Positions 7,872 to 28,453 are shown, counted from the first letter of the stretch. The stretch: 64,000 nt of DNA from a virus (IMGVR_UViG_3300030708_002923:1-64000); one strand, 5' to 3'. Numbers and translations are program-made. The notes: generated by a model from the sequence alone, not told the origin.

Positions 7872-8066
7872 CTCTTTGTTTCTAACAAAATCCCCAGGGG
7901 GGCGCTCCGCGCCCCCCGCGCAAACGCCGCAAGCACCACCACCGCCACAGGGGGGCAGAGCCTCGCACACGCGCCCGATTCCGCGCACGGTTCCACCTAT
8001 GGCACCCGGTCAGGGTCCACAAATCCCCGAAAAATCCAGGGGGAAGGCGGCATATCGCGCAGTCGG

Positions 8067-8444
8067 TCACACGGTCCACCCCCACGCGCGCACGGTAGAC
8101 AACGCGCCCCGCATAGCACCACGGGCAACCCCGGCCACGCTACGCGCTACCCCCTGAACACCACGGGCCACGCTACGCGCAACGCGCGCAACGCTACGCG
8201 ATACACGCGCAACAGTAGAACCCACGGGGGGGGTCACAACCTCGGCCACAACTGGAACCTCCACCAAGGGGGCAACCTCGGCCACGCCCACAAGGGGGGC
8301 GGCTATGGTTACCACGCGGGGGGCTCCAGGGATGCGAAGCTGTGGAACCTTCGCCCACGCAACGAACCGACCCGTAGCAGAGCACCGCGCACGCTGGCGG
8401 GGCGCGTCTGCTGAGAGGTTCGAGAATGCGAGTGCGAAAGTCAT
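8067..8444 (-). CDS. Putative leaderless 125-aa protein with VAR-repeat amphipathic C-terminus
   Basis: MTFALAFSNLSADAPRQRARCSATGRF..VARVSRSVARVARSVARGVQGVARSVAGVARG; ATG lies 7 nt after the -10 box. Confidence 0.5.
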   Translation of the reverse strand: MTFALAFSNLSADAPRQRARCSATGRFVAWAKVPQLRIPGAPRVVTIAAPLVGVAEVAPLVEVPVVAEVVTPPVGSTVARVSRSVARVARSVARGVQGVARSVAGVARGAMRGALSTVRAWGWTV

Positions 8445-8450
8445 GACCAT

Positions 8451-8479
8451 ACTATACCCGACCTTGACAGACCTTGCAA
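8451..8479 (-). promoter_or_regulatory. sigma70-type promoter (leftward)
   Basis: TTGCAA-N17-TATAGT. Confidence 0.7.
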
Positions 8480-8508
8480 GGGGGGTGACGTACAAAAAAC
8501 GAAGAAAG

Positions 8509-8601
8509 TTTTTTCTTCAATGATTCTAAGCACTTACAAGATATCATGCATTTTTTTTAAAAAAAGTTTGGTTTTTTTTCTTCAATGATTTCAAGCACTT
8601 A
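8509..8601. repeat. Two 28-bp direct repeats resembling IHF sites
   Basis: TTTTTTCTTCAATGATTCTAAGCACTTA (8509-8536) and TTTTTTCTTCAATGATTTCAAGCACTTA (8574-8601); near the WATCAANNNNTTR consensus with an upstream A/T tract. Confidence 0.55.
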
Positions 8602-8628
8602 GGTGCCCACATTAGAGACGTCCATCGT

Positions 8629-8657
8629 TTGCCATACCTGACAGAGTATGTTCTATT
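8629..8657 (+). promoter_or_regulatory. Possible promoter for the structured RNA
   Basis: TTGCCA-N17-TCTATT; the -10 match is weak. Confidence 0.3.
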
Positions 8658-8663
8658 GTTTGT

Positions 8664-9627
8664 GTGGCGGGGGAAACACCCCGCAAAAAAATCACTACCG
8701 ACCGGGGCGGACACTGCCAACGCCTAAGAACTAAAGCGGTCCCTTGAATCTTTGAAATCACGAATAAGAATAGACGGGCAACCTGGAAACAGATTGACCC
8801 TGGTACACGGCGCGGCAAAGACGAACCCCGCGCAATCGGCCACCGCTGGAATGCAGTAAGTGCGACAGTAGGAGAGACGACCCCCCATTGCATACATCAA
8901 TAGGGGGGCGCCATCCGAAAGGATTGACACCCCGAAGCCCCGAACCCTATGGAATCCGCCACGGCGGGCAGGGTGAGGCGAGCAGGACAGGCCAACCGAT
9001 TGAACCCCGTGTAAGTTACCCCCCGGCACGTTTCACGGACGGCGGGGGAGTGCCAAGACCCCAACACCTGCGGGCGAGCGCCACTAAGGCTTTGAGCAAC
9101 ATCAAGGCCCCGTCTATAAATCCACCGCGACGAATCGCAGCGCTTACAACGTGTCGAGGTGGTAGAAATGCGATGCGGCGAGCAGTAGCGAGGCCGAGGG
9201 ATTAGTAACCCCGAAGACTACTGCAAGGTATCCCCCCACCTTACACGGGGGGACTGTGAGGCCGTGGCCCGCAGTGAACACCGCCCCGGCGAGCGTATCG
9301 CCGCCCCTTTCTACATAGCCGCCGCAAGGGATTACCCTGGATAATACGGCGGGCAATACCGAAAACCCCTACAACGGTCGCACCTTGCTGAGGGCTTCAA
9401 TCCAAGAGGGATAAAAACGCTTCCCTGTTCTATTGATAGGTAGGGGTCGGGCTCGTACCTCGGCCCCGTTTCATTACATAGCCGCCGCCGAGGCTCCCCC
9501 TATGATTCAGAGAGGGGTTGAGCCCCGGCGGGCGGTGGACCTTTCCCGGTTCGCTGTCCTGCGATTCGTCGCTGTTGACATGCCAACTACCGCAAATGTA
9601 GGATAGCCCGGTTTTAACGGGGCTTTT
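8664..9627 (+). ncRNA. Candidate large structured non-coding RNA (~960 nt), family not recognised
   Basis: No credible ORF; at least 7 long-range helices of 8-14 bp, many local hairpins, GNRA loops on the + strand, and a terminator-like 3' hairpin. Confidence 0.7.
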
Positions 9628-9712
9628 CGATGTATTTTGTACCGATAGGGCGGGGGGCCTACCCCTGATTTTTACACCTTGTCCCGCTGTTGGTCCGGTT
9701 GCCATGTCAACA
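9573..9712. repeat. 15-bp inverted repeat made of two GTTG-N6-CAAC palindromes
   Basis: TGTTGACATGCCAAC (9573-9587) versus GTTGCCATGTCAACA (9698-9712), 14/15 complementary. Confidence 0.6.
9605..9627 (+). terminator. Terminator-like hairpin at the 3' end of the RNA
   Basis: AGCCCG..CGGGGCT stem followed by TTTT. Confidence 0.45.
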
Positions 9713-9867
9713 CCAGCACGGAATAAGCCGCTTCAAAGGCTGCATATCACGTAGCCGATGGGTATTTTCATTCGGGGGCTTGAGAGGTGGCGCGGACCAA
9801 CCCCGCATAAAATCCCCGCCATATTCGCCTGTACTGGTACGAATGACCGAACCTTACCCCCCTTGTA

Positions 9868-10100
9868 CCCTAACCTCTGCCCTAACCTATCGACGAGGTT
9901 AGGGCACCCGATAGCCCGCCTTCAAGGTGCCTTATCGGTTGATGCCCTAACCTACCCTAACCTCTGGCCCAACATTTTGAACCTCTCGGATTTTCTCGAC
10001 TGTCTCGTTCTTCTCTCTCTACTATATTGTATTACCTACCTACCTATTCTGTCTAATAGGTTAGGGTAGGTTAGGGCAATAGAGAATAAACGAGGTTCAA
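9868..10100. repeat. Iteron-like CCCTAACCT/AGGTTAGGG cluster with nested inverted repeats
   Basis: 7 copies of the 9-mer; perfect 21-bp inverted repeat 9943-9963/10058-10078; 11-bp hairpin 9878-9888/9896-9906; TTGAACCTC/GAGGTTCAA 9977-9985/10092-10100. Confidence 0.75.
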
Positions 10101-10156
10101 CCGGGCTTTTCAACCTGCCCCAACGTAGGGGCACCACTGCCCCAACGGGTAGGCAC

Positions 10157-10185
10157 TTGACACCCTTTACCCCTTCCCTTAGACT
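10157..10185 (+). promoter_or_regulatory. sigma70-type early promoter
   Basis: TTGACA-N17-TAGACT, 37 nt before the first early ATG. Confidence 0.75.
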
Positions 10186-10221
10186 GACATACCAGCCAAA
10201 CCCTAACAGACTGGAGATATC

Positions 10222-10551
10222 ATGCCTGTACTCAAACGATACAAGCCGCACGGCGGCTATCCCTTGGCGCCTGGAGCCGGATGGGCGACTGTCCGAAAAC
10301 TGACCAACAGAGAGGCGGTCATGATTCTGAATGCCTCCGAGACTATGGCTGAGCGTGGCCCTGATGGATTGCGCGACACCATCGCGGGCAAGTGCTTTGT
10401 AGCTTTGAATCGATTCGGTCGCCCTAAAGCTGGCGAGTGGAACCAACCCTGTCCCGCCGGTACTCGTGCCATCTACCACCACGGTGGTGGTGGTGGCGTG
10501 TGGTCCGGTTTCTATATCATCGAAAAACTAAAAACCCTGGAGCAATCATGA
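10222..10551 (+). CDS. Early hypothetical protein
   Basis: CTGGAG RBS; ATGA-coupled to the next gene. Confidence 0.65.
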   Translation: MPVLKRYKPHGGYPLAPGAGWATVRKLTNREAVMILNASETMAERGPDGLRDTIAGKCFVALNRFGRPKAGEWNQPCPAGTRAIYHHGGGGGVWSGFYIIEKLKTLEQS

Positions 10552-11108
10552 TGAACAAAAAGACACGCACAATCGATGGCACAACCTATACCGTGACCTA
10601 TGGATTCGATACCAAGTTTGCCGCGAAGCATAATCAACGGCCGTACTTCAGCATCACCCTTGACGTAACCGAGGGGAAACGATGGGTAAGCGGTGGCGCG
10701 GATTCTGATACCATCGCGGAGGTATTCCCCGAACTTGCCAACGTTCTACAATGGCACCTGGCTGACCACTCCGCGACACCTATACACTACGTGGCCAACA
10801 CCATGTACTGGCGGGACCACTTCCCAACGCAGGCCGAGGTACAAGTATCTGAGGATGAGCCAACGCAAACGGTTACCATGGCTCCAAAGTATGAGGACCG
10901 GTACAACTACGGACCCGAGAGACTCGCGGCTCACTTGAAGTCTTGCATGGCTTGGGGCGCGTTACCGTCAGAGCGTGACTGGACGGGCGACAGCCCCGAG
11001 ACGTGGGACCGTGACACGCTCCGTGTGTACCTCGTGACACGTCAAGCGGCCTTGATGGATAACATGCGCGCGGACCTTGCGGCCGTAGGCGTGACCATTC
11101 CCAACTAA
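10548..11108 (+). CDS. Conserved-type phage hypothetical protein
   Basis: PYFSIT..FPEL..WHL..PIHYVANTMY pattern; CCCTGGAGCAATCATG start. Confidence 0.7.
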   Translation: MMNKKTRTIDGTTYTVTYGFDTKFAAKHNQRPYFSITLDVTEGKRWVSGGADSDTIAEVFPELANVLQWHLADHSATPIHYVANTMYWRDHFPTQAEVQVSEDEPTQTVTMAPKYEDRYNYGPERLAAHLKSCMAWGALPSERDWTGDSPETWDRDTLRVYLVTRQAALMDNMRADLAAVGVTIPN

Positions 11109-11144
11109 TCAACCGGGGCCCCGTGCCCCACTGGAGCAAACAAA

Positions 11145-11435
11145 ATGCCAATAGACCAATCATTCAAGTCCTATTCCTCTGCGCTTGCAGAATATGTAAA
11201 CCATCCTGACTACTACAAGGGCCGATGGGCTGTACGCTGTACCGTAATCGCAACGGGCCAAGTCGGTAGGCGGGTATTCGACAGTCACTCGGATGCGACA
11301 GCATTTGTAGATGACTTGGTGGCGCGGGGGGTATGCACTCCCGGTGATGGCAAGTACCGCATTCGTTTCGAGCGCGTTGACCCCTTGCCTGGATTCCCTA
11401 AAGCCCTGGAGCAATCATGCAACGCATCAAGTTAG
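11145..11435 (+). CDS. Early hypothetical protein
   Basis: Starts right after repeat copy 11106. Confidence 0.65.
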   Translation: MPIDQSFKSYSSALAEYVNHPDYYKGRWAVRCTVIATGQVGRRVFDSHSDATAFVDDLVARGVCTPGDGKYRIRFERVDPLPGFPKALEQSCNASS

Positions 11436-11647
11436 AAAACCTCGAAAACGTAGTAGACCGTATCAATTCGGCCGGTGTCGGCACCTACATGGTCGACCAT
11501 ACAAGCGGCGGCGTCCGCCTATCCATGCTGAACGAAACCGGCGGAAGGCGTGCCATCACGCCAATAGGAACCAAGCGCGAAACCTACTACCGCATGCACG
11601 CCTTTCTGGATGGCGTTGAGGCTGCCCAACACGGGGGGCAATCATGA
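11417..11647 (+). CDS. Early hypothetical protein
   Basis: CCCTGGAGCAATCATG start; ATGA coupling downstream. Confidence 0.65.
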   Translation: MQRIKLENLENVVDRINSAGVGTYMVDHTSGGVRLSMLNETGGRRAITPIGTKRETYYRMHAFLDGVEAAQHGGQS

Positions 11648-11967
11648 GCGCCATCATCGACACCATTAACCTGAGCGCCTGTAGCGATTGTCTTCTATTC
11701 ATCGCCAACGGTGACGAGCCAGAAGGTGACGAAACCCTACCCGCTCGCATCCAATCGGAATGGACCGTATCCGACGATACATGTGACCACCATGGCGCCG
11801 TCCACGGTTCCCTATGGTGGGACATCGTGTACGGTGGCGAGCATGAAAGCGAGGCCGACGAGCACAGCGGTTCCCTCGGTTTCTCATGGTCATCGTGCGA
11901 GTGTTGCGGTTCAAGTCTCGGAGGCGACCGCTACCCCTTGACCGCTATCCTCAGACGTAAACCCTGA
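11644..11967 (+). CDS. Early hypothetical protein with CxxC motifs
   Basis: CSDC..FSWSSCECCGSSLGGDRY. Confidence 0.7.
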   Translation: MSAIIDTINLSACSDCLLFIANGDEPEGDETLPARIQSEWTVSDDTCDHHGAVHGSLWWDIVYGGEHESEADEHSGSLGFSWSSCECCGSSLGGDRYPLTAILRRKP

Positions 11968-11979
11968 ACCCCTGGAGCA

Positions 11980-12852
11980 ATGATGTACCCCGAAACGTTC
12001 TGGAATAAACCCGTGCCCGCCAAGTACCGCAAGGCGCTGGAGGGCTTGGGGCTACCCCTTGACATAAGCCGGCGCGACCTATTCCGGTTCGTTGCCTTCA
12101 CCGATTCAGGCAAGCCCCGAAACATTCTCGGGTCTTCCTCTAAAGTAGAGAAGGGCGAAGGCGCTGGTGTTCTCACCGCAATCCTGTACCTGTCGCCCGG
12201 TCGTGAGGCCGGTATCAATATGTGCCCAATGGCGGCAGGCTGTGAAGCTGGATGCCTTGGGACTACCTCGCGCCGGATGACATGGCCTACCCATAAGAAA
12301 GCGCGGGTATGCAAAACGGTATGGCTGATGCTATTCCGTGACCACTTCCTACGGCGCCTGTCTTGGGAGATAATCGGCCACGCTATGACGGCGGAAGCCA
12401 TGGATATGAAACCCGCTATCCGCCTGAACGGGTCGAGTGATGTACTGTGGGAAAACTACAACGTACCTCAGAGCCATCCAGAGGTGCAGTTCTACGACTA
12501 TACGAAGCTGCCAGCGAAAGCCCGCGCAGGCGTGCCGGATAACTACCACCTAACGTTCAGCCTATGCGAGCGCCCCGAGAGCAAGGGTCGAGCCCTGGAG
12601 TGGCTCAACGCAGGCCGAAACGTGGCCATGGTCGTGGGCGGTGAGTCTACAACCGACAGGCCAAGCGTAATGCTGAAGGCGGCAAAGGCGGCGGCAGCTA
12701 CTATCATCGAGCGCGGAACCTTCGAGGGCTTCCCCGCTGTAAGCGGTGACAATGATGACATTCGATTCGATGACCCACCCGGCGCCTGGGTCGTGCTCTA
12801 TGCCAAGAGTGGCGCCCTGACAGACAGTACTGGATTCGTCCAGCGATTCTAA
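11980..12852 (+). CDS. GP88-like phage protein
   Basis: LYLSP..NMCP..GC..GCL..IRLNGSSDV.WE..VQFYDYTK..NYHLTFS..DDIRFDD..GFV motifs. Confidence 0.75.
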   Translation: MMYPETFWNKPVPAKYRKALEGLGLPLDISRRDLFRFVAFTDSGKPRNILGSSSKVEKGEGAGVLTAILYLSPGREAGINMCPMAAGCEAGCLGTTSRRMTWPTHKKARVCKTVWLMLFRDHFLRRLSWEIIGHAMTAEAMDMKPAIRLNGSSDVLWENYNVPQSHPEVQFYDYTKLPAKARAGVPDNYHLTFSLCERPESKGRALEWLNAGRNVAMVVGGESTTDRPSVMLKAAKAAAATIIERGTFEGFPAVSGDNDDIRFDDPPGAWVVLYAKSGALTDSTGFVQRF

Positions 12853-12884
12853 CAATGAGGGGCTTCGGCCCCACTGGAGAGACA

Positions 12885-12980
12885 ATGGGAACACTTGAAG
12901 ACCGATACCAAAACTATGTTCAATGCATGATTGACCTTGGTCAACCATACGTGGACTTTGACACGTGGCTCAACCGATAG
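12885..12980 (+). CDS. 31-aa small protein (not in ORF track)
   Basis: MGTLEDRYQNYVQCMIDLGQPYVDFDTWLNR, exactly bounded by two junction repeats. Confidence 0.6.
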   Translation: MGTLEDRYQNYVQCMIDLGQPYVDFDTWLNR

Positions 12981-12993
12981 CCCTGGAGCAAAC

Positions 12994-13215
12994 ATGAGAC
13001 TGTCCTATAGATTCTTCGATACCCGACAGGAAGCACGGAAGTTCTTTCAGTCCAATAACCTCACACTGGAGGCGTTCTATCACACTTGGCACGGCGAGTG
13101 GTTGATTTGCTATCCAGACCCGCACGCCATCGGGTGTGAGCACCTGCCCGAACTTCAACCCGGTTGCGATGAAATCCTTTGGGAAATGGACCTAATCGTA
13201 GAGTGTGAAGGCTAA
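12994..13215 (+). CDS. Early hypothetical protein
   Basis: CCCTGGAGCAAACATG start. Confidence 0.6.
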   Translation: MRLSYRFFDTRQEARKFFQSNNLTLEAFYHTWHGEWLICYPDPHAIGCEHLPELQPGCDEILWEMDLIVECEG

Positions 13216-13252
13216 CTAATCAACCGGGGCTTCGGCCCCACTGGAGCAAACA

Positions 13253-13612
13253 ATGAGCAAACGAGCAAAGACATATCATGAGATAGAAGACAACCATTGT
13301 ATCTTGAAGATACGACAGGAACGCGAGGAACGGGACGAATACAACAAGTCAATCGGTAAATCTCAACGGGGCTTTGAACTTCACAGCCCGAGACTTCGGG
13401 CCAATGCGAGCCTTAGAACGGTGGTGAAACATGCGCGAGACGCGGCCGACTTTGCGCTTTACCGTTATCGAGTGGAGCGCGATTGGTGGCACACACTCCG
13501 AGATACAAGCCAGGTCAGAGAGTATCAAAACAAAGGGCATGAAGTGGAAATACTTCGAGACAGGTGGCACACACTCGAAGAAATCGCGCAGCACCTTGAA
13601 CGACTCACTTAA
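13253..13612 (+). CDS. Early hypothetical protein with internal RDRWHTL-like repeat
   Basis: Bounded by repeat copies 13217 and 13610. Confidence 0.65.
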   Translation: MSKRAKTYHEIEDNHCILKIRQEREERDEYNKSIGKSQRGFELHSPRLRANASLRTVVKHARDAADFALYRYRVERDWWHTLRDTSQVREYQNKGHEVEILRDRWHTLEEIAQHLERLT

Positions 13613-13644
13613 TCAACCGGGGCTTCGGCCCCACTGGATACCCC

Positions 13645-13848
13645 ATGCACAAAAAGAAATACCGCGTCATCTACCGATGCCGCAGCACCCATTTACCAAG
13701 GTATCAATACGACTGTGGCGGTTACGTTAGCCGAGGTGTTCTCCAACGTAGCCGTATCGTGTCGGCTGCTGACGCTGCCCAAGCCGTCCTGAAGGCTCGC
13801 ACGTTCGATGATTACATCGAACTTGTGACTGTCTACGAGTCTGCCTAA
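13645..13848 (+). CDS. Early hypothetical protein
   Basis: Bounded by repeat copies 13610 and 13851. Confidence 0.6.
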   Translation: MHKKKYRVIYRCRSTHLPRYQYDCGGYVSRGVLQRSRIVSAADAAQAVLKARTFDDYIELVTVYESA

Positions 13849-13885
13849 CCTAATCAACCGGGGCTTCGGCCCCACTGGAGCAAAC

Positions 13886-14158
13886 ATGCAAACGAATGAA
13901 AACGCATTTATCGAACGTTGTTTCTGTATGTCACCGAAGCATCGAGACTGGAACCAAGCATGGGAAGCGATTGCGCGCCATGAATCCAACCGAGAAATGA
14001 ACGATAAAATGACCGCAGCCTGCCCGTTTAGCGGCGAGTCATGGCAATACATGGGCAGCTACAACAAGCCACAAGGGAACGTCCACACGTTCCGCCATCG
14101 CCGTCACCCTGGAGTGAACGGTGAGCGCGTCAACGTGCGCGTGTTCATCCCCAACTAA
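13886..14158 (+). CDS. Early hypothetical protein
   Basis: Bounded by repeats; CPFSGESWQYMGS motif. Confidence 0.65.
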   Translation: MQTNENAFIERCFCMSPKHRDWNQAWEAIARHESNREMNDKMTAACPFSGESWQYMGSYNKPQGNVHTFRHRRHPGVNGERVNVRVFIPN

Positions 14159-14182
14159 ACCGATAGCCCTGGAGCAATCATC

Positions 14183-14374
14183 ATGACACTACAAGAGGAA
14201 CTGGCAGCGTTGAAGCTGGCCGACATAAAAGACAAGCTACTGCGCTACTTGCTCAAAGACGTGGAAGCGAACTTCGAGCACTTGACGAATGAGGAACGCA
14301 CCATCATCGGTGACCCTGAAACATTCAGCGCGCTGTTGGAATCCATTGGGATTGACCAGCACGGAACCCGATAG
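14183..14374 (+). CDS. Early hypothetical protein
   Basis: CCCTGGAGCAA RBS. Confidence 0.6.
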   Translation: MTLQEELAALKLADIKDKLLRYLLKDVEANFEHLTNEERTIIGDPETFSALLESIGIDQHGTR

Positions 14375-14410
14375 CATACCCGACACACACAAACAAACAG
14401 GAGGTGAGTG

Positions 14411-14620
14411 ATGCCTACATACCAAATACACTGCACAGCAGCGATTGAAATATACGCAACCGTCGATGCCGATAGTATAGAGCATGCCAAGCGCATCGCT
14501 TCAAACATTACGATTGTAAACTACGCCAATGAAACGGTAGGCGCCGAGACAGACGACGGAGAGATAACTGAAGTCATCGGCCATGAGGTAGCTGGTATTA
14601 CAATCACAGGAGGTGAGTAA
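14411..14620 (+). CDS. Early hypothetical protein
   Basis: Junction-bounded, ends GGE. Confidence 0.65.
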   Translation: MPTYQIHCTAAIEIYATVDADSIEHAKRIASNITIVNYANETVGAETDDGEITEVIGHEVAGITITGGE

Positions 14621-15039
14621 TGAGCCCTACCGCAAGATTCAAAGAGTCCATCAACGGTAGCGATGTAGTCATCGACCTACGGCCTGGACAGACCTTGACC
14701 CACGTAAAGTATGAGCCTACCGATGAGGGATGGGACCGCACTGTACACACGTGGCATTACGATGCCGATAGCAAAGTCATCACAGTCAACTACTTCAATG
14801 AAGGCCGCGACTGTGATGGCTACATGTCAACCCACTACGAACGCGAATGCTCGGTTGACCGGCTACGCTCTCGAACAGTGAAGCATCCGACTGGTGGACG
14901 GTGGGAGCCATTCACCTTCGACGATGGCACCACTGCCCACGAGTGGGTGACCACTTGGGAAGAACAGACAGGCTGGCCTGACTGGAGAGAGGTCGGCTAC
15001 GAGTACCATGACCAGAACGCCAGAGCGATGGGCTACTAA
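14620..15039 (+). CDS. Early hypothetical protein
   Basis: TAATG coupled; EGRDCDG motif. Confidence 0.65.
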   Translation: MSPTARFKESINGSDVVIDLRPGQTLTHVKYEPTDEGWDRTVHTWHYDADSKVITVNYFNEGRDCDGYMSTHYERECSVDRLRSRTVKHPTGGRWEPFTFDDGTTAHEWVTTWEEQTGWPDWREVGYEYHDQNARAMGY

Positions 15040-15060
15040 ACTTTACCTATGCTGACACAC

Positions 15061-15090
15061 TTGACAGCCAATACCAAACAGGTGTATAAC
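15061..15090 (+). promoter_or_regulatory. sigma70-type promoter for ardC
   Basis: TTGACA-N18-TATAAC. Confidence 0.65.
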
Positions 15091-15120
15091 CCTAATGAGC
15101 AAACAAACCGGAGATTCAAC

Positions 15121-16074
15121 ATGGCTAAAAAACCAACATTCAACACGCACCAAGTCATCACCGATATTATCTTGGCTTCGATGGAGAAGGGCGTACAGCC
15201 CTGGCGCAAAGGCTGGACCGCATTGGGTGGCGCCTTGAGCCGTCCCGTCAGTGGAGGTACAGGCAATCCATACAACGGTATCAACGTGATTCTGCTATGG
15301 GCGGCACAGTCCGAGCGTGGCTACCACTCCGATACTTGGCACACGTACAAGGGTGCCCAAGGCAAGGGCGGTCAGGTACGCAAGGGTGAGAAGGGTACAC
15401 GCATCGTCAAGTGGTTGTTCCTGCCATTCAAAGAGAACGGACAGGTAAAGCTTGATGCCAACGGTGAGCCCGTGACCTTCGCAAAGATGAGGCTGTACAC
15501 AGTCTTCAACGCTTGCCAGATTGATTGGGCAGAGGGTAGCGAGCATGCCCCTGGTCCTGCTCCAACAGTGGAGGAACACGATGGTTCTCAGGCCGGTGAC
15601 GAGTACGAAGATGCCAAAGTCATTCTGGATTCGTGGGCCGATGAGGTCACAATCAGACATGGCGGCGACTCAGCATTCTATCGACCATCGGATGACTTGA
15701 TTCAACTGCCCACCTTTGAACAGTTTGACAGTGAAGCCGAATACTTCTCGACTGCCTTTCATGAGGCGATTCACAGCACGGGCCACAGTACCCGCCTGAA
15801 CCGCTTCAAAAAGGAACGCAAGGGTAGCTACAAGCAAGCCTACGCATTCGAGGAACTGGTAGCAGAGTTGGGTGCAGCGTTCTTGTGTGCGGATGCTGGT
15901 ATCAACCAGCCAGAAGAACCACGCGAGGACCACGCGCAGTACTTGGCCCACTGGCTCGAAGTACTCAAGGGTGACCCGAAGGCCATCGTGTCTGCGGCAT
16001 CCAAGGCAGAGAAGGCAGCGAAGCTTGTAGTGGCAAAGGCTGGCGAGGCCGGTCAACAGCAGGCAGCGAAGTAA
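15121..16074 (+). CDS. ardC: ArdC-like antirestriction/ssDNA-binding protein (ArdC-N plus zincin domain)
   Basis: PWRKGW..YNGINVILLW..W.TY..GGQVRKGEKG..VFNA..AFYRPSDD.IQLP..FHEAIHSTGH..RLNR..YAFEELVAELGAAFL..YLAHWL; GGAG RBS before ATG 15121. Confidence 0.9.
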   Translation: MAKKPTFNTHQVITDIILASMEKGVQPWRKGWTALGGALSRPVSGGTGNPYNGINVILLWAAQSERGYHSDTWHTYKGAQGKGGQVRKGEKGTRIVKWLFLPFKENGQVKLDANGEPVTFAKMRLYTVFNACQIDWAEGSEHAPGPAPTVEEHDGSQAGDEYEDAKVILDSWADEVTIRHGGDSAFYRPSDDLIQLPTFEQFDSEAEYFSTAFHEAIHSTGHSTRLNRFKKERKGSYKQAYAFEELVAELGAAFLCADAGINQPEEPREDHAQYLAHWLEVLKGDPKAIVSAASKAEKAAKLVVAKAGEAGQQQAAK

Positions 16075-16144
16075 ACCGGGAGAGGGAAGCAGTTTGCGGT
16101 CTGCTTATCAAAACCGCCTACCTTTCAACCATCATGGAGAACAA

Positions 16145-16378
16145 ATGATGATTCGATACCTAATCGTTGACACGGAAATAGACCCCAATGAAACAGGCTC
16201 TCAGGGCATGTCTGCGGCATTCGTTCGCAACAGCAAAGACAGAGTCATGCACACAACTAACATTGAAAAGGCTCGCCGATGGCGCGACAGTCGCAATGAC
16301 GGCATCGACGAGGGAGAGCCTGGTTTTTCGATTCTCGAAATAAACACAGAGACGGGCGCACAACGCCTTGTTTCATAA
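16145..16378 (+). CDS. Early hypothetical protein
   Basis: GGAG RBS. Confidence 0.55.
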   Translation: MMIRYLIVDTEIDPNETGSQGMSAAFVRNSKDRVMHTTNIEKARRWRDSRNDGIDEGEPGFSILEINTETGAQRLVS

Positions 16379-16395
16379 CAAACAACAGGAGGTGA

Positions 16396-16680
16396 ATGAT
16401 GAACATGCCAGAAGGATTGAAGTACTGGACCGCTGACGAGGTAGCCGAATGCCTTGATGGAATCGGGCCTGACCTATATCGCAAGCTGTGGGAGATTCTT
16501 GCTGAAGCCAAGAACCCTACACCACTTGGGGGCGACGGTTCCAATGGAACAGTCGAGACACCAGATGGTCGGCTGGACGAGGACAACGACGACAAGGCCC
16601 CACACTGGTGGGTCAAGCTTACGCCAGCCGAGCAGACAACTATCGCATCAGCATACATCGCTGAACGTGGAGGTGAGTGA
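16396..16680 (+). CDS. Early hypothetical protein
   Basis: Junction-bounded, ends GGE. Confidence 0.65.
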   Translation: MMNMPEGLKYWTADEVAECLDGIGPDLYRKLWEILAEAKNPTPLGGDGSNGTVETPDGRLDEDNDDKAPHWWVKLTPAEQTTIASAYIAERGGE

Positions 16681-17000
16681 TGCCTAAGTATACAGCAGGA
16701 CCATGGGAAGCGTCGGAAGGCTACCCCTCGGACATCTGGCACGTTGACATGCCGAGTCGAGGATATTCCGTCGTCGTATCCCGAGCAGAAGAAGATTGGG
16801 ACGTGGCTGTCGAGGAAGTGCAGGCCAACGCACACCTGATCGCGGCGGCACCTGAGTTGCTGGATGCTTTGATCATCACACTCGATCTCGCCGTGGGTCA
16901 CGCCTGTGACTCTCGGGGAATCACACCAGCAGAGTGCGCAGACTGGGAGTGGGTGAAGCAGGCTCGCAAACTCATCGCGAAAGCGAAAGGAGGTGAGTGA
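16680..17000 (+). CDS. Common phage protein (TxGPW..ANAxLIAAAPELL family)
   Basis: YTAGPW..ANAHLIAAAPELLDAL. Confidence 0.75.
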   Translation: MPKYTAGPWEASEGYPSDIWHVDMPSRGYSVVVSRAEEDWDVAVEEVQANAHLIAAAPELLDALIITLDLAVGHACDSRGITPAECADWEWVKQARKLIAKAKGGE

Positions 17001-17030
17001 TGCCGAGAAGATGGCAAGGAAGGTGAAGTA

Positions 17031-17207
17031 ATGGAAAACAATGAAGCAAACCGATTGAAGTTAGCCGAGGCCATTTGGGAAACGCTAAGTCTCGACGACT
17101 TACATGAGCAGTTCATCTTCCAAAGTCTCGAACGATACAAAACAGATCCCGACGCATTCGAGGAAGATTGTGCGGCCATGGATCTCGACAATGATGGAGG
17201 TGAGTGA
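17031..17207 (+). CDS. 58-aa acidic protein (not in ORF track)
   Basis: MENNEANRLKLAEAIWETLSLDDL..DLDNDGGE, ends in the junction motif. Confidence 0.6.
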   Translation: MENNEANRLKLAEAIWETLSLDDLHEQFIFQSLERYKTDPDAFEEDCAAMDLDNDGGE

Positions 17208-17695
17208 TGGGTAGATGGCAAGGACCAGAACACCAATACTCAGAGGCTCGACGCGCCTACGAACAACGTGAAGAATATCGCTATGAGCGATGGAAGGAAA
17301 GGAATCCAGAATGTCATAAGTGCGGAGAGCGTGAGCACGAAGACAAGATGACCGACATGTATGGGGATGACTGGTGTACTCATTGTGTCAGTGAGCACGC
17401 ATTCGAGTGTGACGTGTGCGGCAAGACACACGCTAACGAGTACCTGACCGACGTAGACTTAACGATGGGCGAGTACGTATGCGACGAGTGCGACGAGAAG
17501 TGTGCAGCCGACAAGACGCGCCATCATGCTCCAGTAGAGATCCCGATCGGTCACATGGAATATGTACTATGGACTATGGAGAACGCTGCGAAGGACGAAC
17601 CATATGAAGGTACTCAACCGGGCAACGCAAAGAAATGGTTGAGAGAAAGCATTGACCGGATCAAACAATCAATGCCCAAAGAGGACGGTGAGTGA
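17207..17695 (+). CDS. Multi-CxxC zinc-binding protein
   Basis: CHKC, CTHC, CDVC, CDEC. Confidence 0.7.
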   Translation: MGRWQGPEHQYSEARRAYEQREEYRYERWKERNPECHKCGEREHEDKMTDMYGDDWCTHCVSEHAFECDVCGKTHANEYLTDVDLTMGEYVCDECDEKCAADKTRHHAPVEIPIGHMEYVLWTMENAAKDEPYEGTQPGNAKKWLRESIDRIKQSMPKEDGE

Positions 17696-17913
17696 TGCAA
17701 CGGTTCGATGAAGTGATGGTCCGGCGAAGTGTCGGGTGGGGCTCCGGTTGGGAGTATGAATACGGCTACGTAAAGTTTCTATACTCAGAGACGCCTTGGG
17801 TGAGGGTGAGAGTTTTCAAGAGCAAGCGTTTTGGACCCTCATCTTCGACGTTCCATGTCGATAGTGTATTTCCTATCTACGGTCCTATTCAAGCGCATGC
17901 AGGAGGTGAGTGA
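17695..17913 (+). CDS. Early hypothetical protein
   Basis: Junction-bounded, ends GGE. Confidence 0.6.
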   Translation: MQRFDEVMVRRSVGWGSGWEYEYGYVKFLYSETPWVRVRVFKSKRFGPSSSTFHVDSVFPIYGPIQAHAGGE

Positions 17914-18401
17914 TGAACATATTCGTTTTACACCCTATGCCTGACTTGGCTGCGCGTATGCAGTGTGACCGGCATGTAGTCAAGATGACCCTTGAGACTG
18001 CACAGATGCTCTCTACGGCCATCAATGAGTTGGGTGGGCAGGCATCCTACAAGTCTGCCCACGTCAACCATCCGTGCTCTGTGTGGGCACGGGAAACGCT
18101 CGGCAACTTCGTATGGTTGTGGGAGCACGGAATCAACCTCGCCCAAGAGTACACCGCAAGGTACGGGAAGGTACACAAGTCGGAAGTAGTCATCCGTGAC
18201 TGCTACCACACAATGATGCAACGTCAGCTACTCAAGAGCCGAAGGCTGACACCACACCCACTGTGTATGCCTGACGAGTACAAAACAGACTGTGTGTATG
18301 AATCGTATCGAAACTTCTACATAGGTGAGAAGTCACGATTCGCACGATGGAACAAAACAACTGAGTCACCGTCATGGTGGCCGCAACAAACAAGGACATG
18401 A
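17913..18401 (+). CDS. Pyrimidine-dimer DNA glycosylase-like protein (Pyr_excise/DenV superfamily)
   Basis: MNIFVL..CDRHVVKM.LETAQMLST..YK.AH.NHPCSVWAR..EYTARYGKVHKS..MPDEYK..YRNFY. Confidence 0.75.
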   Translation: MNIFVLHPMPDLAARMQCDRHVVKMTLETAQMLSTAINELGGQASYKSAHVNHPCSVWARETLGNFVWLWEHGINLAQEYTARYGKVHKSEVVIRDCYHTMMQRQLLKSRRLTPHPLCMPDEYKTDCVYESYRNFYIGEKSRFARWNKTTESPSWWPQQTRT

Positions 18402-18404
18402 GTG

Positions 18405-18665
18405 ATGATTATCTATGTACTGGACGACGGAGAGACGTGGACCCTGAGTGAGCCCACGGCGGTAACGATCACGGATGAGCAACTGACGCGCATTGAAGGC
18501 GGTGAGAAGTTGTACCACGTCGTACCCGATTGGGATGAGCAACAGGGTGACGATGCCGATGACTTTTTCATTCGGGCTGGCATCGCTGCCCGAGAAGCAC
18601 TGAAGGAAATCAAGAGAGACTACACAAACAGCATCGTAGATGCTCAGAACCAGGGAGATGAGTAA
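18405..18665 (+). CDS. Early hypothetical protein
   Basis: Variant junction at both ends. Confidence 0.6.
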   Translation: MIIYVLDDGETWTLSEPTAVTITDEQLTRIEGGEKLYHVVPDWDEQQGDDADDFFIRAGIAAREALKEIKRDYTNSIVDAQNQGDE

Positions 18666-19036
18666 TGCCCTATAAATATGTATGGCCAGAGGAAGCATTC
18701 GAGGTACGCATCCAGTGTACTGAGGAACAAATACAACAGCATTGTGATGCGGCGCCTGAGAACGACCGTCGAGACTTCGATGATCGTGGTGGGCTTCAGA
18801 TACCGGTGTACCATGTATACAAAAACGATTCGATTGATGAGCGTTTGACTTATTGGTATACGCTCGACAAAAACGAGTGCGATACCTACGAGTTTGATGT
18901 TCGCGATATTCCGACATGGTGGAACTGTTCTTCAGAAAGTCCAGAGAATCATCAAGACTGCATCCAAGAAGCATTGAACGATGGCGTCATTGAGTTTGAT
19001 GGATTGCTACTGAAGATACACAAGATGGCTGAGTGA
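18665..19036 (+). CDS. Early hypothetical protein
   Basis: TAATG coupled. Confidence 0.65.
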   Translation: MPYKYVWPEEAFEVRIQCTEEQIQQHCDAAPENDRRDFDDRGGLQIPVYHVYKNDSIDERLTYWYTLDKNECDTYEFDVRDIPTWWNCSSESPENHQDCIQEALNDGVIEFDGLLLKIHKMAE

Positions 19037-19112
19037 TCCCCATGTCGGACCTATTGTCCTGGCTCCGTACTCTCTAATGAGGCACTATCGCTTCACCAAC
19101 ACAGGAACCCAA

Positions 19113-19337
19113 ATGACTGACGATGAACGAATAGCACTGATCAACGACACAACAACCAGTGACTCTCTAAACTACGCGCTGATACGGGCCGAACGAAACT
19201 CACTAGACCACAGCGCGACAATCTACGACAACTACCCTGTCGGTGCCACCAACATCACAGCCACCGACTGGCAACGCCACTGGACTGAGTCTGATGAAAT
19301 GTTCGATATGATGTGGAACGGTACAACGAACACTTAA
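19113..19337 (+). CDS. Early hypothetical protein
   Basis: ACACAGGA leader; start uncertain. Confidence 0.5.
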   Translation: MTDDERIALINDTTTSDSLNYALIRAERNSLDHSATIYDNYPVGATNITATDWQRHWTESDEMFDMMWNGTTNT

Positions 19338-19527
19338 CAACATTCAACCGAGTGACGTCGAGGACGCTCCACAACACTCATCGCGAGGTGCATCATGTTC
19401 TAAGTCATAGTGCCGGTAAGGGTGAGGGGCCTGGATTACTCACCCAAGTAGACCTTTTATTGTGACCCATGTCCAAACGGAACCAAGCGCCGGTTCTGTC
19501 CACCGAGCCTACAACACAGGAGTATGT

Positions 19528-19740
19528 ATGACTCGCTTACCAAACAGATCAGCCTTTCCAAGTTTCGACTTGGCCCTTGGCCCGCACGACCCCTCCAAAC
19601 TTCAGCACCGTCACCCGTTTACAGAGTGGGTGAAGCCGGTGCCAGAGACAATCCCCCCAATGAATGAACCACAACAAAGTGAATGGATTCGCCTGAACGA
19701 TAGCGTGGTTCGCAGAGCAAACACAGGAGAGCAAAAATGA
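19528..19740 (+). CDS. Early hypothetical protein
   Basis: AACACAGGAG RBS. Confidence 0.5.
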   Translation: MTRLPNRSAFPSFDLALGPHDPSKLQHRHPFTEWVKPVPETIPPMNEPQQSEWIRLNDSVVRRANTGEQK

Positions 19741-19937
19741 CTGAGCAAGAAATCAAACAACTAAAGAGCATGCGGAGACTATTAGAGCAGTGGTCTAAAC
19801 CACAACCCACGGTTGCGATCGGCAACGCAGAGAACGTTCAATCGTTCCCTGAAGAATCTCGTATTGCGTTTCAGCAGCAGCTTGAAGCAATCAACAAGGT
19901 TCTCGAAAGGGCAGAGGCAGAGGACAGCCAAGCATGA
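19737..19937 (+). CDS. Early hypothetical protein
   Basis: AACACAGGAG RBS, ATGA coupling. Confidence 0.6.
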   Translation: MTEQEIKQLKSMRRLLEQWSKPQPTVAIGNAENVQSFPEESRIAFQQQLEAINKVLERAEAEDSQA

Positions 19938-20146
19938 CACCAAGCAAAGAGACACCCATTGGAACACCACTGAAGTCTACCGTGAAGGGATGGGGTAAAG
20001 GTCCATTCGTTTACATGGGCAACGGCAGAGGCGGACAGACAATCATAGTCGCAACGAAGAAGGATGGATTGCAGCAAGCGCGCGCATCTGACTTCTCCAT
20101 CGATTCGATTGCCGCCAAAGCCATTGGTGACTTTATTATCAAGTAG
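19934..20146 (+). CDS. Early hypothetical protein
   Basis: ATGA coupling. Confidence 0.6.
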   Translation: MTPSKETPIGTPLKSTVKGWGKGPFVYMGNGRGGQTIIVATKKDGLQQARASDFSIDSIAAKAIGDFIIK

Positions 20147-20149
20147 CGG

Positions 20150-20178
20150 TTGACTATGGCTTTACTTGCCTGTAAGGT
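20150..20178 (+). promoter_or_regulatory. Possible sigma70-type promoter
   Basis: TTGACT-N17-TAAGGT. Confidence 0.45.
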
Positions 20179-20213
20179 CATACCTACCCTACCTCAACAC
20201 ACTGGAGCAGAAG

Positions 20214-20513
20214 ATGAACAAAGCAGAGCAGTTTAGATTACCGGTGAGCCCGCGCAACATTTCAGTTGAGTTGGTTCGAGAGGTTGAAGACGAAGATACA
20301 GGCGAGGTTGTCGCGGAACACATCATCGAGGTATTTGGTCGGTTCCTTCCTGCGGAGCCCAATGTGGGTCTTGGTCCCCACATTGAGGTTCTGTCAGCGC
20401 ACCGACAAGACAGGGACGTTCGCGTTCCTGTAGAGTTAGAAGATTGGGAGGTTGACACGTTGCTCGACCTTTATCAAGAGCAGTTGCGGACAGAACTTGA
20501 CCGTGACATTTGA
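20214..20513 (+). CDS. Early hypothetical acidic protein
   Basis: CACTGGAGCA RBS. Confidence 0.65.
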   Translation: MNKAEQFRLPVSPRNISVELVREVEDEDTGEVVAEHIIEVFGRFLPAEPNVGLGPHIEVLSAHRQDRDVRVPVELEDWEVDTLLDLYQEQLRTELDRDI

Positions 20514-20550
20514 TTTTTTATGGCATACTTGACGAACACAGGAGAACAAA

Positions 20551-20838
20551 ATGAGCACCAATCAATGTAATAAATGCTACAACCCCATCGGAAACAACAT
20601 CACAGCCCTTCACAACATTCAAGTGATGAAGGCCGTCATGCAAGATTCGATGGTGCGTGCGGACGAGGCCGAGGACAGCGCGCATAAGGTGATGATTCTG
20701 GAATCAACAATCAACCACATTTTAGAAAACATCGAGAGAGATTTTGGTGAAGCGTGGTCGATTCATAAACAACAAATGAAGGAGTTGATGGAGTCTCTGA
20801 GAGATCAGGGAATCATCAGCGATGTAGGAGGTGAGTGA
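20551..20838 (+). CDS. Early hypothetical protein
   Basis: ACACAGGAG RBS; ends GGE. Confidence 0.65.
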   Translation: MSTNQCNKCYNPIGNNITALHNIQVMKAVMQDSMVRADEAEDSAHKVMILESTINHILENIERDFGEAWSIHKQQMKELMESLRDQGIISDVGGE

Positions 20839-21242
20839 TGTTTGTTTTCAACGATGGTGGTAGAGCAGACGCAGGATTCAAGGGGACGACCGGAGATTGT
20901 GCCGTTCGCGCCATGGCGATTGCTCTTGATCTTTCCTACGCTGACGTGTACCGCGAGTTGGCCCAAGCCAACAAAGACGCAGGCCGCAAGAAGTCAGTGA
21001 GGCGAGGCGTGATGAAAGAGGTATACAGCACGGTACTTTCAAAGTACGGATGGGAGTGGCGCTCTGCACCGAAGTTCGACGGACGCAAGGCACGGTATAA
21101 TGACCTACCCAATGGCAAGTGTATCGCTCGCATGGCGGGTCACTACGCAGCGGTCATCGACGGTAATCTACACGACTCGTGGAACTCTGGACGCAAGATG
21201 GTGTACGGCTACTGGGTCAAGGCAACCGAAGGAGGTGAGTGA
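20838..21242 (+). CDS. Putative papain-fold (C39-like) cysteine peptidase-type phage protein
   Basis: GDCAVRAMAIA..GHYAAVIDG..HD, a candidate Cys-His-Asp triad. Confidence 0.5.
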   Translation: MFVFNDGGRADAGFKGTTGDCAVRAMAIALDLSYADVYRELAQANKDAGRKKSVRRGVMKEVYSTVLSKYGWEWRSAPKFDGRKARYNDLPNGKCIARMAGHYAAVIDGNLHDSWNSGRKMVYGYWVKATEGGE

Positions 21243-21251
21243 CAATCACAC

Positions 21252-21280
21252 TTGACACACTTGGACCAACCAAGTAATGT
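21252..21280 (+). promoter_or_regulatory. sigma70-type promoter
   Basis: TTGACA-N17-TAATGT. Confidence 0.55.
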
Positions 21281-21304
21281 ACTCAAACCATACAGGAGAA
21301 TGTA

Positions 21305-22239: not shown

Positions 22240-22734
22240 GTGGAACTCACATCACAAGAAATAATCGCCCTTACGAAGGCGTTCAACACGAAAGCAGTCT
22301 CGATTGCAAAACGGGACATCGACAACAACTCTGAGATTGACGTGAACCTTATCGTCAAGATCGCTGGTAAACTCAAGCGAGGCCAAGAGTCTAAGCCAGT
22401 CAAAGCTACCTCCACAATCCCGTGGAAAGTGGCCCTGGCTCTCTTTGCCAAGCGCTCTGGGTTCACCCGTGAGCAAACTGCAAAGGTGCTGCTTGAGGCG
22501 GTTACCTTCGCACTCGAAACCAACTCCGACAAGAAGACTGAACTTCTTGAAGAAATGGGAGTTGGGGATGCCCTGGCCATGCTGGACCGAGAGGTCTTTG
22601 ACAAGCTGCCCAAGAAGACCCGTGATGGAAACATCACCTTCGAGGTGGCAATGGTCGAGGCTGTTCGAGAGCCAATGTTGGTGGCTGACCAAGACACTTT
22701 AACCCTTGGGGAAGGGGAAGAGGTGGCGAAGTAA
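22240..22734 (+). CDS. Hypothetical protein
   Basis: AAACAAACAGGAGAG RBS then GTG start. Confidence 0.7.
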   Translation: MELTSQEIIALTKAFNTKAVSIAKRDIDNNSEIDVNLIVKIAGKLKRGQESKPVKATSTIPWKVALALFAKRSGFTREQTAKVLLEAVTFALETNSDKKTELLEEMGVGDALAMLDREVFDKLPKKTRDGNITFEVAMVEAVREPMLVADQDTLTLGEGEEVAK

Positions 22735-27538: not shown

Positions 27539-28453
27539 ATGAGTGAAACATTACCAACAATCGGAAGCAGTAGCATCGGCGCCATCCTTGGCCTCTCCCC
27601 ATGGAGTAGCCCATGGGACGTTTGGGCAAGAGCCCATGGTCTGAGTGAAAGTTCGTCATCAGCGGCAACGCAAAGAGGACACATCTTAGAACCGGCTATT
27701 GGAGCGCACTATGCGCACCTAAACAATGTGGAAATCAAAAAAGGGCCAGAGTACGAGGCCGATCCAATCATTGGGCCTGAGTCTTGGATGCACGCTCGAC
27801 CAGATTTTTTCGTGAAGTCAGACGATAATCACTGGCTGCTGGAGATTAAATCTACTCGAAAGTTTGATCACAGATGGGGGTTTTCAGGATCAAATGGTGT
27901 ACCTCCATACTACGCTGCACAGTGTATTTGGCAGATGGCAGTGACCGATGACGAGCGATGCGATCTGGCAGCATTTGCAACCATGAATGATGAATATAGA
28001 TCCTATACGATTCATCGTGACGAATCTGTTGAATCGAAAATGCTTGAATATGTCAGGGATTGGTACGACAGGCACATTCGTGGAGGGGCACCACCAGAGG
28101 TGGATGGATCTACTGCATGCTCCAAGTCGCTCGCAAAGATGTTCGAGCAAGAGTCAAAAACGTTTATTGAGCCATCCGAAACCCACATGGATTTAGCAAA
28201 ACAGCTTCATCAAATCCGAGCACAGTGTGCTGAGTTGGATGAGAAAAAACGAATGATTGAGAACAAAATAAAAGAAGAGATAGGCACCGCATATGGTATT
28301 AGTGGTGTAGCAACGTGGTCACAGAGCAAACCACGGAGCAGATTTGATCGCGCTTCATTTGAGGCCGATCACCCACACATCGCCAAAAACTACTTGAAGG
28401 TTGGCGAACCAACACGAACATTCAGATTTCAATACACAGGAGAACAAAAATGA
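27539..28453 (+). CDS. YqaJ-like (lambda Exo family) exonuclease
   Basis: IGSSSIGAILGLSPWSSP..RGHILEP..ARPDF..LEIKST..YYAAQCIWQM. Confidence 0.9.
   Translation: MSETLPTIGSSSIGAILGLSPWSSPWDVWARAHGLSESSSSAATQRGHILEPAIGAHYAHLNNVEIKKGPEYEADPIIGPESWMHARPDFFVKSDDNHWLLEIKSTRKFDHRWGFSGSNGVPPYYAAQCIWQMAVTDDERCDLAAFATMNDEYRSYTIHRDESVESKMLEYVRDWYDRHIRGGAPPEVDGSTACSKSLAKMFEQESKTFIEPSETHMDLAKQLHQIRAQCAELDEKKRMIENKIKEEIGTAYGISGVATWSQSKPRSRFDRASFEADHPHIAKNYLKVGEPTRTFRFQYTGEQK

Follow-up and report, generated by a model that had tools for sequence, protein, structure and literature searches.

The virus record IMGVR_UViG_3300030708_002923 of the IMG/VR database is rated complete at 73,021 nt, and its bases 1-64000, here called the window, were analysed with regard to a 14-nt element (GGAGGTGAGTGATG) that recurs at gene junctions between 14.4 and 21.2 kb and is referred to as the linker throughout this paper. 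The + strand gene block in which it lies contains three types of junction, including the CCCTGGAGCAA-type at 10.2-14.4 kb, the linker at 14.4-21.2 kb, and ACAGGAG-type leaders that are interspersed from 19.1 kb. A switch of junction type at about 14.2-14.4 kb had been proposed in an earlier sequence-only reading of this DNA and was found as described: the start at 14183 is the last to have a CCCTGGAGCAA-type junction in front of it, and the linkers begin at 14400.

Anatomy and copies of the linker

The exact 14-mer occurs six times, always on the + strand (14400, 16669, 16989, 17196, 17902, and 20827), and no further exact copy was found in the part of the 73,021-nt record beyond the window. 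With up to two mismatches, 12 copies were detected between 14400 and 21244, all on the + strand, while 100 dinucleotide-preserving shuffles of the window gave a mean of 0.49 and a maximum of 3 such matches and no exact copy; the earlier count of six exact and six variant copies was thus confirmed. The element begins with an 8-nt Shine-Dalgarno (SD) sequence (GGAGGTGA, motif positions 1-8), which we take to be complementary to the 3' tail of 16S rRNA, followed by one G and by a TGA whose A opens the next ATG. GGAGGTGA ends 3 nt before the ATG and GGAGG 6 nt before it, with the SD lying within the upstream coding sequence. The upstream frame reads GGA GGT GAG TGA through the motif, and upstream proteins end in Gly-Gly-Glu (GGE) because the motif spans their last codons. 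Stop and start overlap as TGATG or TAATG at nine junctions of the window, and a second TGA at motif positions 6-8 closes another reading frame. The SD/anti-SD duplex at the linker was predicted to have -15 to -16 kcal/mol with an E. coli-type tail, compared to -5.6 to -7.4 kcal/mol at the other junction types, the helicase genes, and the major head gene; all these energies refer to the near-universal 16S tail. The tail of the host could not be read directly because neither a host nor a cultured relative was identified: no relative of the phage was found among 185,579 prokaryote genomes, no DNA match to a cultured phage was obtained, and the best protein matches, all below 38% identity, were scattered over many hosts.

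The 14-mer is not the general ribosome site of this phage. In the whole genome, GGAGGTGA is present nine times on the + strand and never on the - strand, and 4-5 nt GGAG-type sites are found at the structural genes of the opposite strand, among them the major head gene (identified by a PHROG match), and at the replication genes. Similarity between the copies of the window fades within a few bases outside the 14-mer, and their flanks are unrelated. No paralogues were found among the array proteins of the window, no two of which cluster together, and paralogy of array genes as the source of the repeat was discarded on account of this lack of clustering and of the similarity stopping near the edges of the 14-mer. 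The motif has no inverted-repeat structure. A scan for sigma-70 promoters and terminators over 13.8-22.4 kb placed no promoter-like or terminator-like site at the linker copies and gave fewer promoter-like sites than in shuffles, and ACTTGAC shows no overall enrichment. Antisense control was also rejected, since the genome contains no stretch of at least 10 nt complementary to the motif, and the conserved non-coding RNA region at 8.7-9.6 kb does not contain even one of at least 8 nt.

The run of copies starts with the exact linker at 14400-14413, from which gene 14411-14620 takes its ribosome site and ATG. The called gene beside it ends at 14374 and does not need the stop part of the motif; a 40-codon overlapping open reading frame (ORF) that begins at 14289 and stops at the TGA of this copy is unlikely to be a gene. 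A variant with a TAA stop (GGAGGTGAGTAATG, 14609-14622) joins gene 14411-14620, which ends in GGE, to gene 14620-15039. After the ArdC operon, the run is opened again by the variant GGAGGTGAATGATG at 16388-16401, the start of gene 16399-16680; at this copy and at 14400, no called gene reads in and the neighbour ends 20-36 nt upstream. Exact linkers then connect gene 16399-16680 (GGE) to gene 16680-17000 (linker at 16669-16682) and close gene 16680-17000 (GGE; linker at 16989-17002), where an 8-codon relic ORF is opened. This relic, MPRRWQGR, is a copy of the opening 7 codons of gene 17207 (MGRWQGP, or MTKRWQGP in the related locus L144), and together with the degenerate linker GGAAGGTGAAGTAATG that follows it and starts gene 17031-17207, it makes up a recombination scar at 17000-17033. 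Three further copies join gene 17031-17207 (GGE) to gene 17207-17695 (exact, 17196-17209), gene 17207-17695 (DGE) to gene 17695-17913 (variant GACGGTGAGTGATG, 17684-17697), and gene 17695-17913 (GGE) to the Pyr_excise-like gene 17913-18401 (exact, 17902-17915), the last two being the left and right repeats of an insertion/deletion (indel) relative to the related locus L136.

At the variant GGACATGAGTGATG (18394-18407), the inner TGA (18399-18401) terminates the upstream gene, with the following gene beginning at 18405, and the variant GGAGATGAGTAATG (18654-18667) joins gene 18405-18665 (GDE) to gene 18665-19036 at the site of a three-gene indel relative to L136. A degenerate terminal half-linker (ATGGCTGAGTGA, 19025-19036) closes the first sub-array. 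It is followed by a degenerate linker with 4 mismatches and a 2-codon ORF (linker at 19384-19397), which aligns with an intact GGAGGTGAATGATG in the relative L137, and homology of the window to L137 begins at that intact copy. In the second sub-array, the exact linker at 20827-20840 connects gene 20551-20838 (GGE) to gene 20838-21242 and forms the left edge of a replaceable slot, the right edge of which is the terminal half-linker GGAGGTGAGTGA (21231-21242), which ends gene 20838-21242 in GGE with no start codon after it. The degenerate copies at 17018-17033, 19025-19036, and 19384-19397 come in addition to the 12. The proposed fusion of SD, stop, and overlapping start therefore holds as the general anatomy, with the startless copy at 21231 and the use of the inner TGA at 18394 as departures from it. 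Similarly, unrelated proteins do carry the ends claimed for them (GGE in seven, DGE in one, and GDE in one), except that the protein at 18394 ends in TRT and that the copies at 14400 and 16388 receive no called gene.

The linker in related phages

Relatives were retrieved from IMG/VR with the replication-module protein 22240-22731, the motif not being used, and 41 loci with 75-98% identity were obtained. In these loci, the 185 kb that precede the replication gene contain 110 exact copies, and the 269 kb after it and the reverse strand have none. When junctions were called with a simple gene caller, 153 of the 393 junctions on the array side carried the motif with up to two mismatches (95 of them exactly). 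These 153 represent 130 distinct gene-family pairs, repeated pairs being found almost only among near-identical contigs, and 75 gene families have the motif at their 5' end. Among one-base overlaps of stop and start, the motif is present at 122 of 133 (92%) on the array side and at none of the 24 found among the 548 junctions of the replication side; an SD of 8 nt or more was detected at 115 of the 393 array junctions and at 1 of the 548. The possibility that the motif is equally frequent at all coupled genes, as a generic optimal ribosome site would be, fails because the coupled genes of the replication module never carry it. A gap of 0-3 nt between the end of the upstream gene and the start, which use of the inner TGA would produce, was seen at about 10 motif junctions. 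Position 9 is G in 125, A in 8, and T or C in none of the 133 one-base-overlap junctions. The element is real and lineage-wide, and an assembly artefact was rejected, as a 14-nt repeat is below the k-mer length of assemblers and the pattern is present in 41 independent contigs.

In the relatives, 93 of the 122 coupled upstream proteins, belonging to 54 families, end in GGE. The motif positions that alter the tripeptide (2, 5, and 7) are as variable as the silent ones (3, 6, and 9), and in nine families some genomes encode orthologues with the tail while others encode orthologues that end differently. The Pyr_excise-like protein, for instance, terminates in WWPQGGE, WWPEGGE, or KRKNDNA in the relatives and in QQTRT in the window. 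By these patterns, the GGE tail is a side product of the motif at the DNA level.

Gene content was compared mainly with L136, which has 92-98% nucleotide identity to the window, a range that also applies to L137. Gene 17695-17913 is missing from L136, where a single linker is found whose left part corresponds to copy 17684 and whose right flank is the sequence after copy 17902; the difference is exactly one gene plus one linker. At 18654, three additional genes flanked by two linker copies are present in L136. The copy in the window is chimeric, consisting of the left flank of the first L136 copy and the TAATG of the last. Gene 20838-21242 is swapped for two other genes in L136 and for three in L137. 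Homology to both breaks off immediately behind the ATG of copy 20827; that to L135, L136, and L137 begins again with the first G of half-copy 21231, although the genes upstream of it are different. The second array end is alike, since at position 265 of L135, compared to 19025-19036 of the window, a different gene ends with an intact GGAGGTGAGTGA before the same TCCCCATGTCGG. In L141 (2439-2950), a homologue of gene 20838-21242 is 91% identical within a backbone of 75% identity and starts at a linker; it runs on into an AAAPDLL-motif domain like that of window gene 16680-17000 (PHROG 1273), and the window copy is cut between GAAGG and AGGTGAGTGA. This case is either a fusion of two cassettes by linker loss or a truncation in the window. 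Two scars lie at SD-like microhomology, AAGGA and GAAGG, and these breakpoints fit occasional ectopic pairing of the 5' part of the linker.

Across the relatives, 127 of 303 homology ends fall at the motif, which makes up 2.2% of the sequence, 19 times the rate at random positions. Conservation of gene neighbourhood was assessed in 24 non-redundant genomes by asking whether two families are still adjacent where both occur. Adjacency was kept in 6 of 38 comparisons (16%) at motif junctions and in 84 of 127 (66%) at other array-side junctions (Fisher p=5e-8, the comparisons not being independent). The earlier suggestion of microhomology-driven cassette insertion or gene conversion is borne out in that breakpoints are base-exact at the motif, while gene conversion and the "homogenisation" of junctions were not demonstrated.

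Coupling, exchange, and alternative explanations

The 14-mer is very probably an SD-stop-start coupling linker, to judge from its layout, and would serve as the standard connector of small accessory genes in early operons. A ribosome stopping at the UGA (motif positions 10-12) would be held by 8-9 bp of pairing between GGAGGUGA and the 16S rRNA tail and would restart at the AUG, the A of which is also the last base of the stop, with the second UGA (positions 6-8) shutting the second reading frame; genes joined in this way could therefore be expressed without a promoter or an independent ribosome site of their own, and the GGE tail would be a side effect. On balance we lean, by a narrow margin, toward a double role in which the coupling linker is also a crossover point that makes the array a plug-in cassette region. 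Identical, same-oriented DNA copies may be the sites where crossovers give viable recombinants: deletion between neighbouring copies would drop a gene, and exchange between copies in co-infecting relatives would add or swap genes, possibly assisted by the RecE/RecT-like pair of the phage. We infer both the coupling itself and the recombination mechanism, and we propose that the element is uniform because it is selected for coupling and copied with every exchange. More tentatively, the arrays could represent a translation-level cassette system, in which accessory genes without promoter or ribosome-binding site circulate as units bounded by a 14-nt adaptor (maximal SD, two-frame stops, and start) and are swapped between co-infecting relatives through recombination at short homology within the adaptor, possibly via gene-plus-linker circles and RecE/RecT.

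Several observations weigh against the double role. Fourteen bases are short for RecT-type annealing, and of five differences from L136, two have no motif at their borders, namely an extra gene between 18392 and 18405 whose junctions lack it and a 405-nt non-coding or small-gene segment at 19054-19459. The excess of breakpoints expected from the sequence-only reading was recovered in part: neighbours are lost more often at the motif, while adjacency counted by distinct family pairs (3 of 19 vs 13 of 28, p=0.058) is a trend only, and the share of homology ends at the motif (42%) is close to its share of gene junctions (39%). Neighbour loss could also reflect a greater dispensability of motif-joined genes. 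No recent transfer tracts (>98% identical) with mappable ends were found among the relatives, all of which are metagenome assemblies; the tract search yielded one case, that of gene 20838-21242 in L141, the right end of which is the truncation or fusion with no clean linker. In addition, a scan of IMG/VR for the exact 14-mer returned at least 119 stretches. Among the matches listed, 67 of 117 occurrences on unrelated contigs are true coupled junctions, defined by an upstream ORF ending in GGE and a downstream ORF of at least 30 aa, and the others include 12 with use of the inner TGA, 21 plain ribosome sites, and 10 inside ORFs; the coupled junctions listed lie on about 66 unrelated contigs (among loci L015-L133) with a GC content of 0.37-0.71. 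The GGE-stop-start junction seems to be a widespread phage solution. Because coupled junctions recur in unrelated phages, function alone can yield the 14-mer and its sequence is largely set by function: 13 of the 14 bases are accounted for in this way, and position 9 alone is without obvious constraint. What is special in this lineage is the density and uniformity of the 14-mer within one zone. As a separate observation, several unrelated loci, namely L091 (GC 0.68), L093 (GC 0.36), L060, L016, L113, and L066, have 2-3 copies each.

These points are the core of functional convergence, a serious but rather unlikely alternative, according to which each junction independently reached a maximal SD and UGAUG for strong coupled early translation, gene turnover proceeded by ordinary illegitimate recombination and selection, and the motif has no recombination role. 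The 13 positions that follow from 16S complementarity and stop/start overlap, the unrelated contigs of widely different GC content, and the breakpoints not in excess of the junction share of the motif all suit it, and the full sequence kept where no called gene reads in fits a preferred spacer. However, 130 gene pairs would each need to evolve the same 14-mer, and unrelated contigs usually have one such junction per locus, vs 92% of one-base overlaps here. Two array ends have startless half-copies that mark the homology edge without a downstream gene to serve, single chimeric copies in relatives match deletion between two copies, and position 9, which is G or A in all 133 junctions, is never T, though T would lengthen the pairing with 16S rRNA. 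A class-specific control site, in which the 14-mer would flag one temporal class of mRNA for a phage factor that binds or cuts ribosome sites, is improbable. Such factors exist in phage T4, where RegA is a translational repressor of early mRNAs and RegB cuts GGAG in early SD sites, and the restriction of the motif to one zone, with other ribosome sites at later genes, and the conservation of positions 9-11 beyond the need of SD pairing, even where the SD part has decayed, would be in line with it; no candidate regulator was identified, however, no complementary sequence is present in the phage, the conserved non-coding RNA region at 8.7-9.6 kb included, and the startless half-copies and base-exact indels would be left unexplained.

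The prokaryotic ubiquitin-like protein Pup has a GGE/GGQ end, and selection of the C-terminal tripeptide itself, e.g., as a Pup-like recognition tail, would agree with GGE on so many coupled upstream proteins of 54 families (93 of 122). This explanation was rejected and is very improbable, since the codons are fixed as GGA GGT GAG, tripeptide-changing positions vary like silent ones, orthologues lose the tail along with the junction, and the motif is kept where no called gene reads in. A programmed frameshift of the RF2 type, which combines an SD with UGA, was rejected by sequence reasoning only: GAG in the P site would find no pairing in either of the shifted frames, and an AUG is already provided in the downstream frame.

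The coupling linker, with its likely additional role as a crossover point, was compared to known systems. Classical UGAUG coupling, e.g., between trpE and trpD or trpB and trpA of E. coli, has the same one-base overlap of stop and start and the SD inside the upstream coding sequence; classical couplings are single junctions with individual sequences, whereas the linker is one 14-mer over 130 pairs and lies at gene-content breakpoints. Integron cassettes depend on attC imperfect inverted repeats and the IntI tyrosine recombinase; the linker has no inverted-repeat structure, and no integrase turned up among the 29 window proteins, a part of the genes, that were scanned against Pfam or PHROGs. 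A close parallel in gene shuffling is provided by the promoter-early stem-loop (PeSL) cassettes of T4-type phages (Arbiol et al., 2010, PMC2839356). In both systems, repeated short elements in the same orientation flank orphan genes in hyperplastic early regions (110 exact copies and 130 pairs in the case of the linker), two copies surround a gene in one genome where a single chimeric copy is present in another, and expression signals travel with the element, so that an insert lands acceptably. The ORFan192 case of PeSLs parallels that of window gene 17695-17913 and L136, and mini-circles have been demonstrated for PeSLs (PMC2839356). PeSLs are about 100 bp long and transcriptional, with a sigma-70 promoter and a terminator hairpin; the linker, in contrast, has 14 nt and no promoter or hairpin, is translational, lies partly within the upstream coding sequence, and sets the protein tail.

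The start-associated sequences (SAS) of Cluster K mycobacteriophages (Pope et al., 2011, PMC3203893) resemble the linker in form. Both are asymmetric repeats of 13-14 nt with an SD core, lie in one orientation a few bases before the ATG in the non-structural part of the genome only, and precede different gene families (75 for the linker; the SAS are conserved across subgroups), and some upstream stop codons are located inside the repeat. The consensus of the SAS (GGGATAGGAGCCC) differs from that of the linker, is placed 3-7 bp before the start, and excludes the start, which the linker includes; the SAS also have conserved positions without 16S pairing, and many have an upstream inverted repeat (ESAS). 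No role in gene shuffling and no fixed protein tail are described for the SAS (PMC3203893). No paper was found in the literature that describes this 14-mer, or a comparable coupling linker, as a joint for gene shuffling.

It is an old question whether mosaic phage genomes with exact gene borders arise by chance illegitimate recombination and selection or by exchange at short conserved linkers, and the modular theory of phage evolution predicted such "linker sequences". This lineage offers a clean and abundant test case, with one 14-nt connector, 130 gene pairs, and base-exact gains, losses, and swaps. If the cassette system is real, it would be a working example of the linkers of modular theory, distinct from PeSLs and integrons in having the joint inside the coding sequence and fixing the protein tail. 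A role in recombination would extend the PeSL idea from transcription signals to a translation signal within the coding sequence, and a regulatory need could then write a common C-terminus, GGE, onto dozens of unrelated proteins. The linker may be of use as a marker for accessory-gene arrays in viromes and as a design for plug-in polycistronic constructs.

Neighbouring zones and genes

In the preceding zone, some CCCTGGAGCAA-type junctions are preceded by a GGGGC-TTCG-GCCCC hairpin. Between 11106 and 13886, five copies of a 37-nt connector were observed, consisting of a stop, the GGGGC-TTCG-GCCCC hairpin, ACTGGAGCAAACA, and ATG. These hairpin connectors, in the same genome and operon series, are also standard joints between small unknown genes; they differ from the linker in their composition of a stop, a UUCG hairpin, and a weak CTGGAGCAA ribosome site, without overlap or protein tail, unlike the overlapping 14-mer with a maximal SD of the 14.4-21.2 kb zone. 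The third leader that had been proposed, AACA(A/C)AGGAG, was recovered at three of its six listed places (19513, 19720, and 20535), the other three not having the sequence as written, and a looser leader, A(A/C)ACAGGAG, is present at 14395, 19514, 19721, 20536, 22225, and 28434.

Two stretches near the ends of the sub-arrays are conserved. A gene-poor stretch at 19398-19527, after the degenerate linker and the 2-codon ORF (ATG TTC TAA), is about 95% conserved in L136 and L137 and divides the two sub-arrays; it could be a terminator, a promoter region, or a small RNA. Directly after the terminal half-linker, a promoter-like ATCACACTTGACACACTTGG...TAATGT is found at 21243-21290, near-identical in L134-L137 whatever gene precedes it, which probably marks the start of the replication operon, although a simple sigma-70 scan gives this stretch no score. 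The replication module adjoining the array encodes helicases, a RecE-like exonuclease (27539-28453, + strand), and, next to the latter, a RecT-like annealing protein (28450-29268, + strand). This pair is possibly a phage-encoded machinery for short-homology exchange and may in this capacity be connected with the linker.

Within the array itself, the Pyr_excise-like gene is accompanied by a gene for a protein with ArdC-N and zincin-like MPTase-PolyVal domains at 15121-16074. The latter gene is situated in the middle of the linker zone and breaks the coupled run, and it has a weak ribosome site of its own and a TTGACA-containing upstream region. The tetranucleotide GATC is absent from 8000-16837 (about 8.8 kb), compared to 329 occurrences in the 73-kb genome (about 1 per 222 nt), and the first GATC is located at 16838, about 760 nt past the ardC-like gene; this void is consistent with an early-entering, restriction-exposed region.

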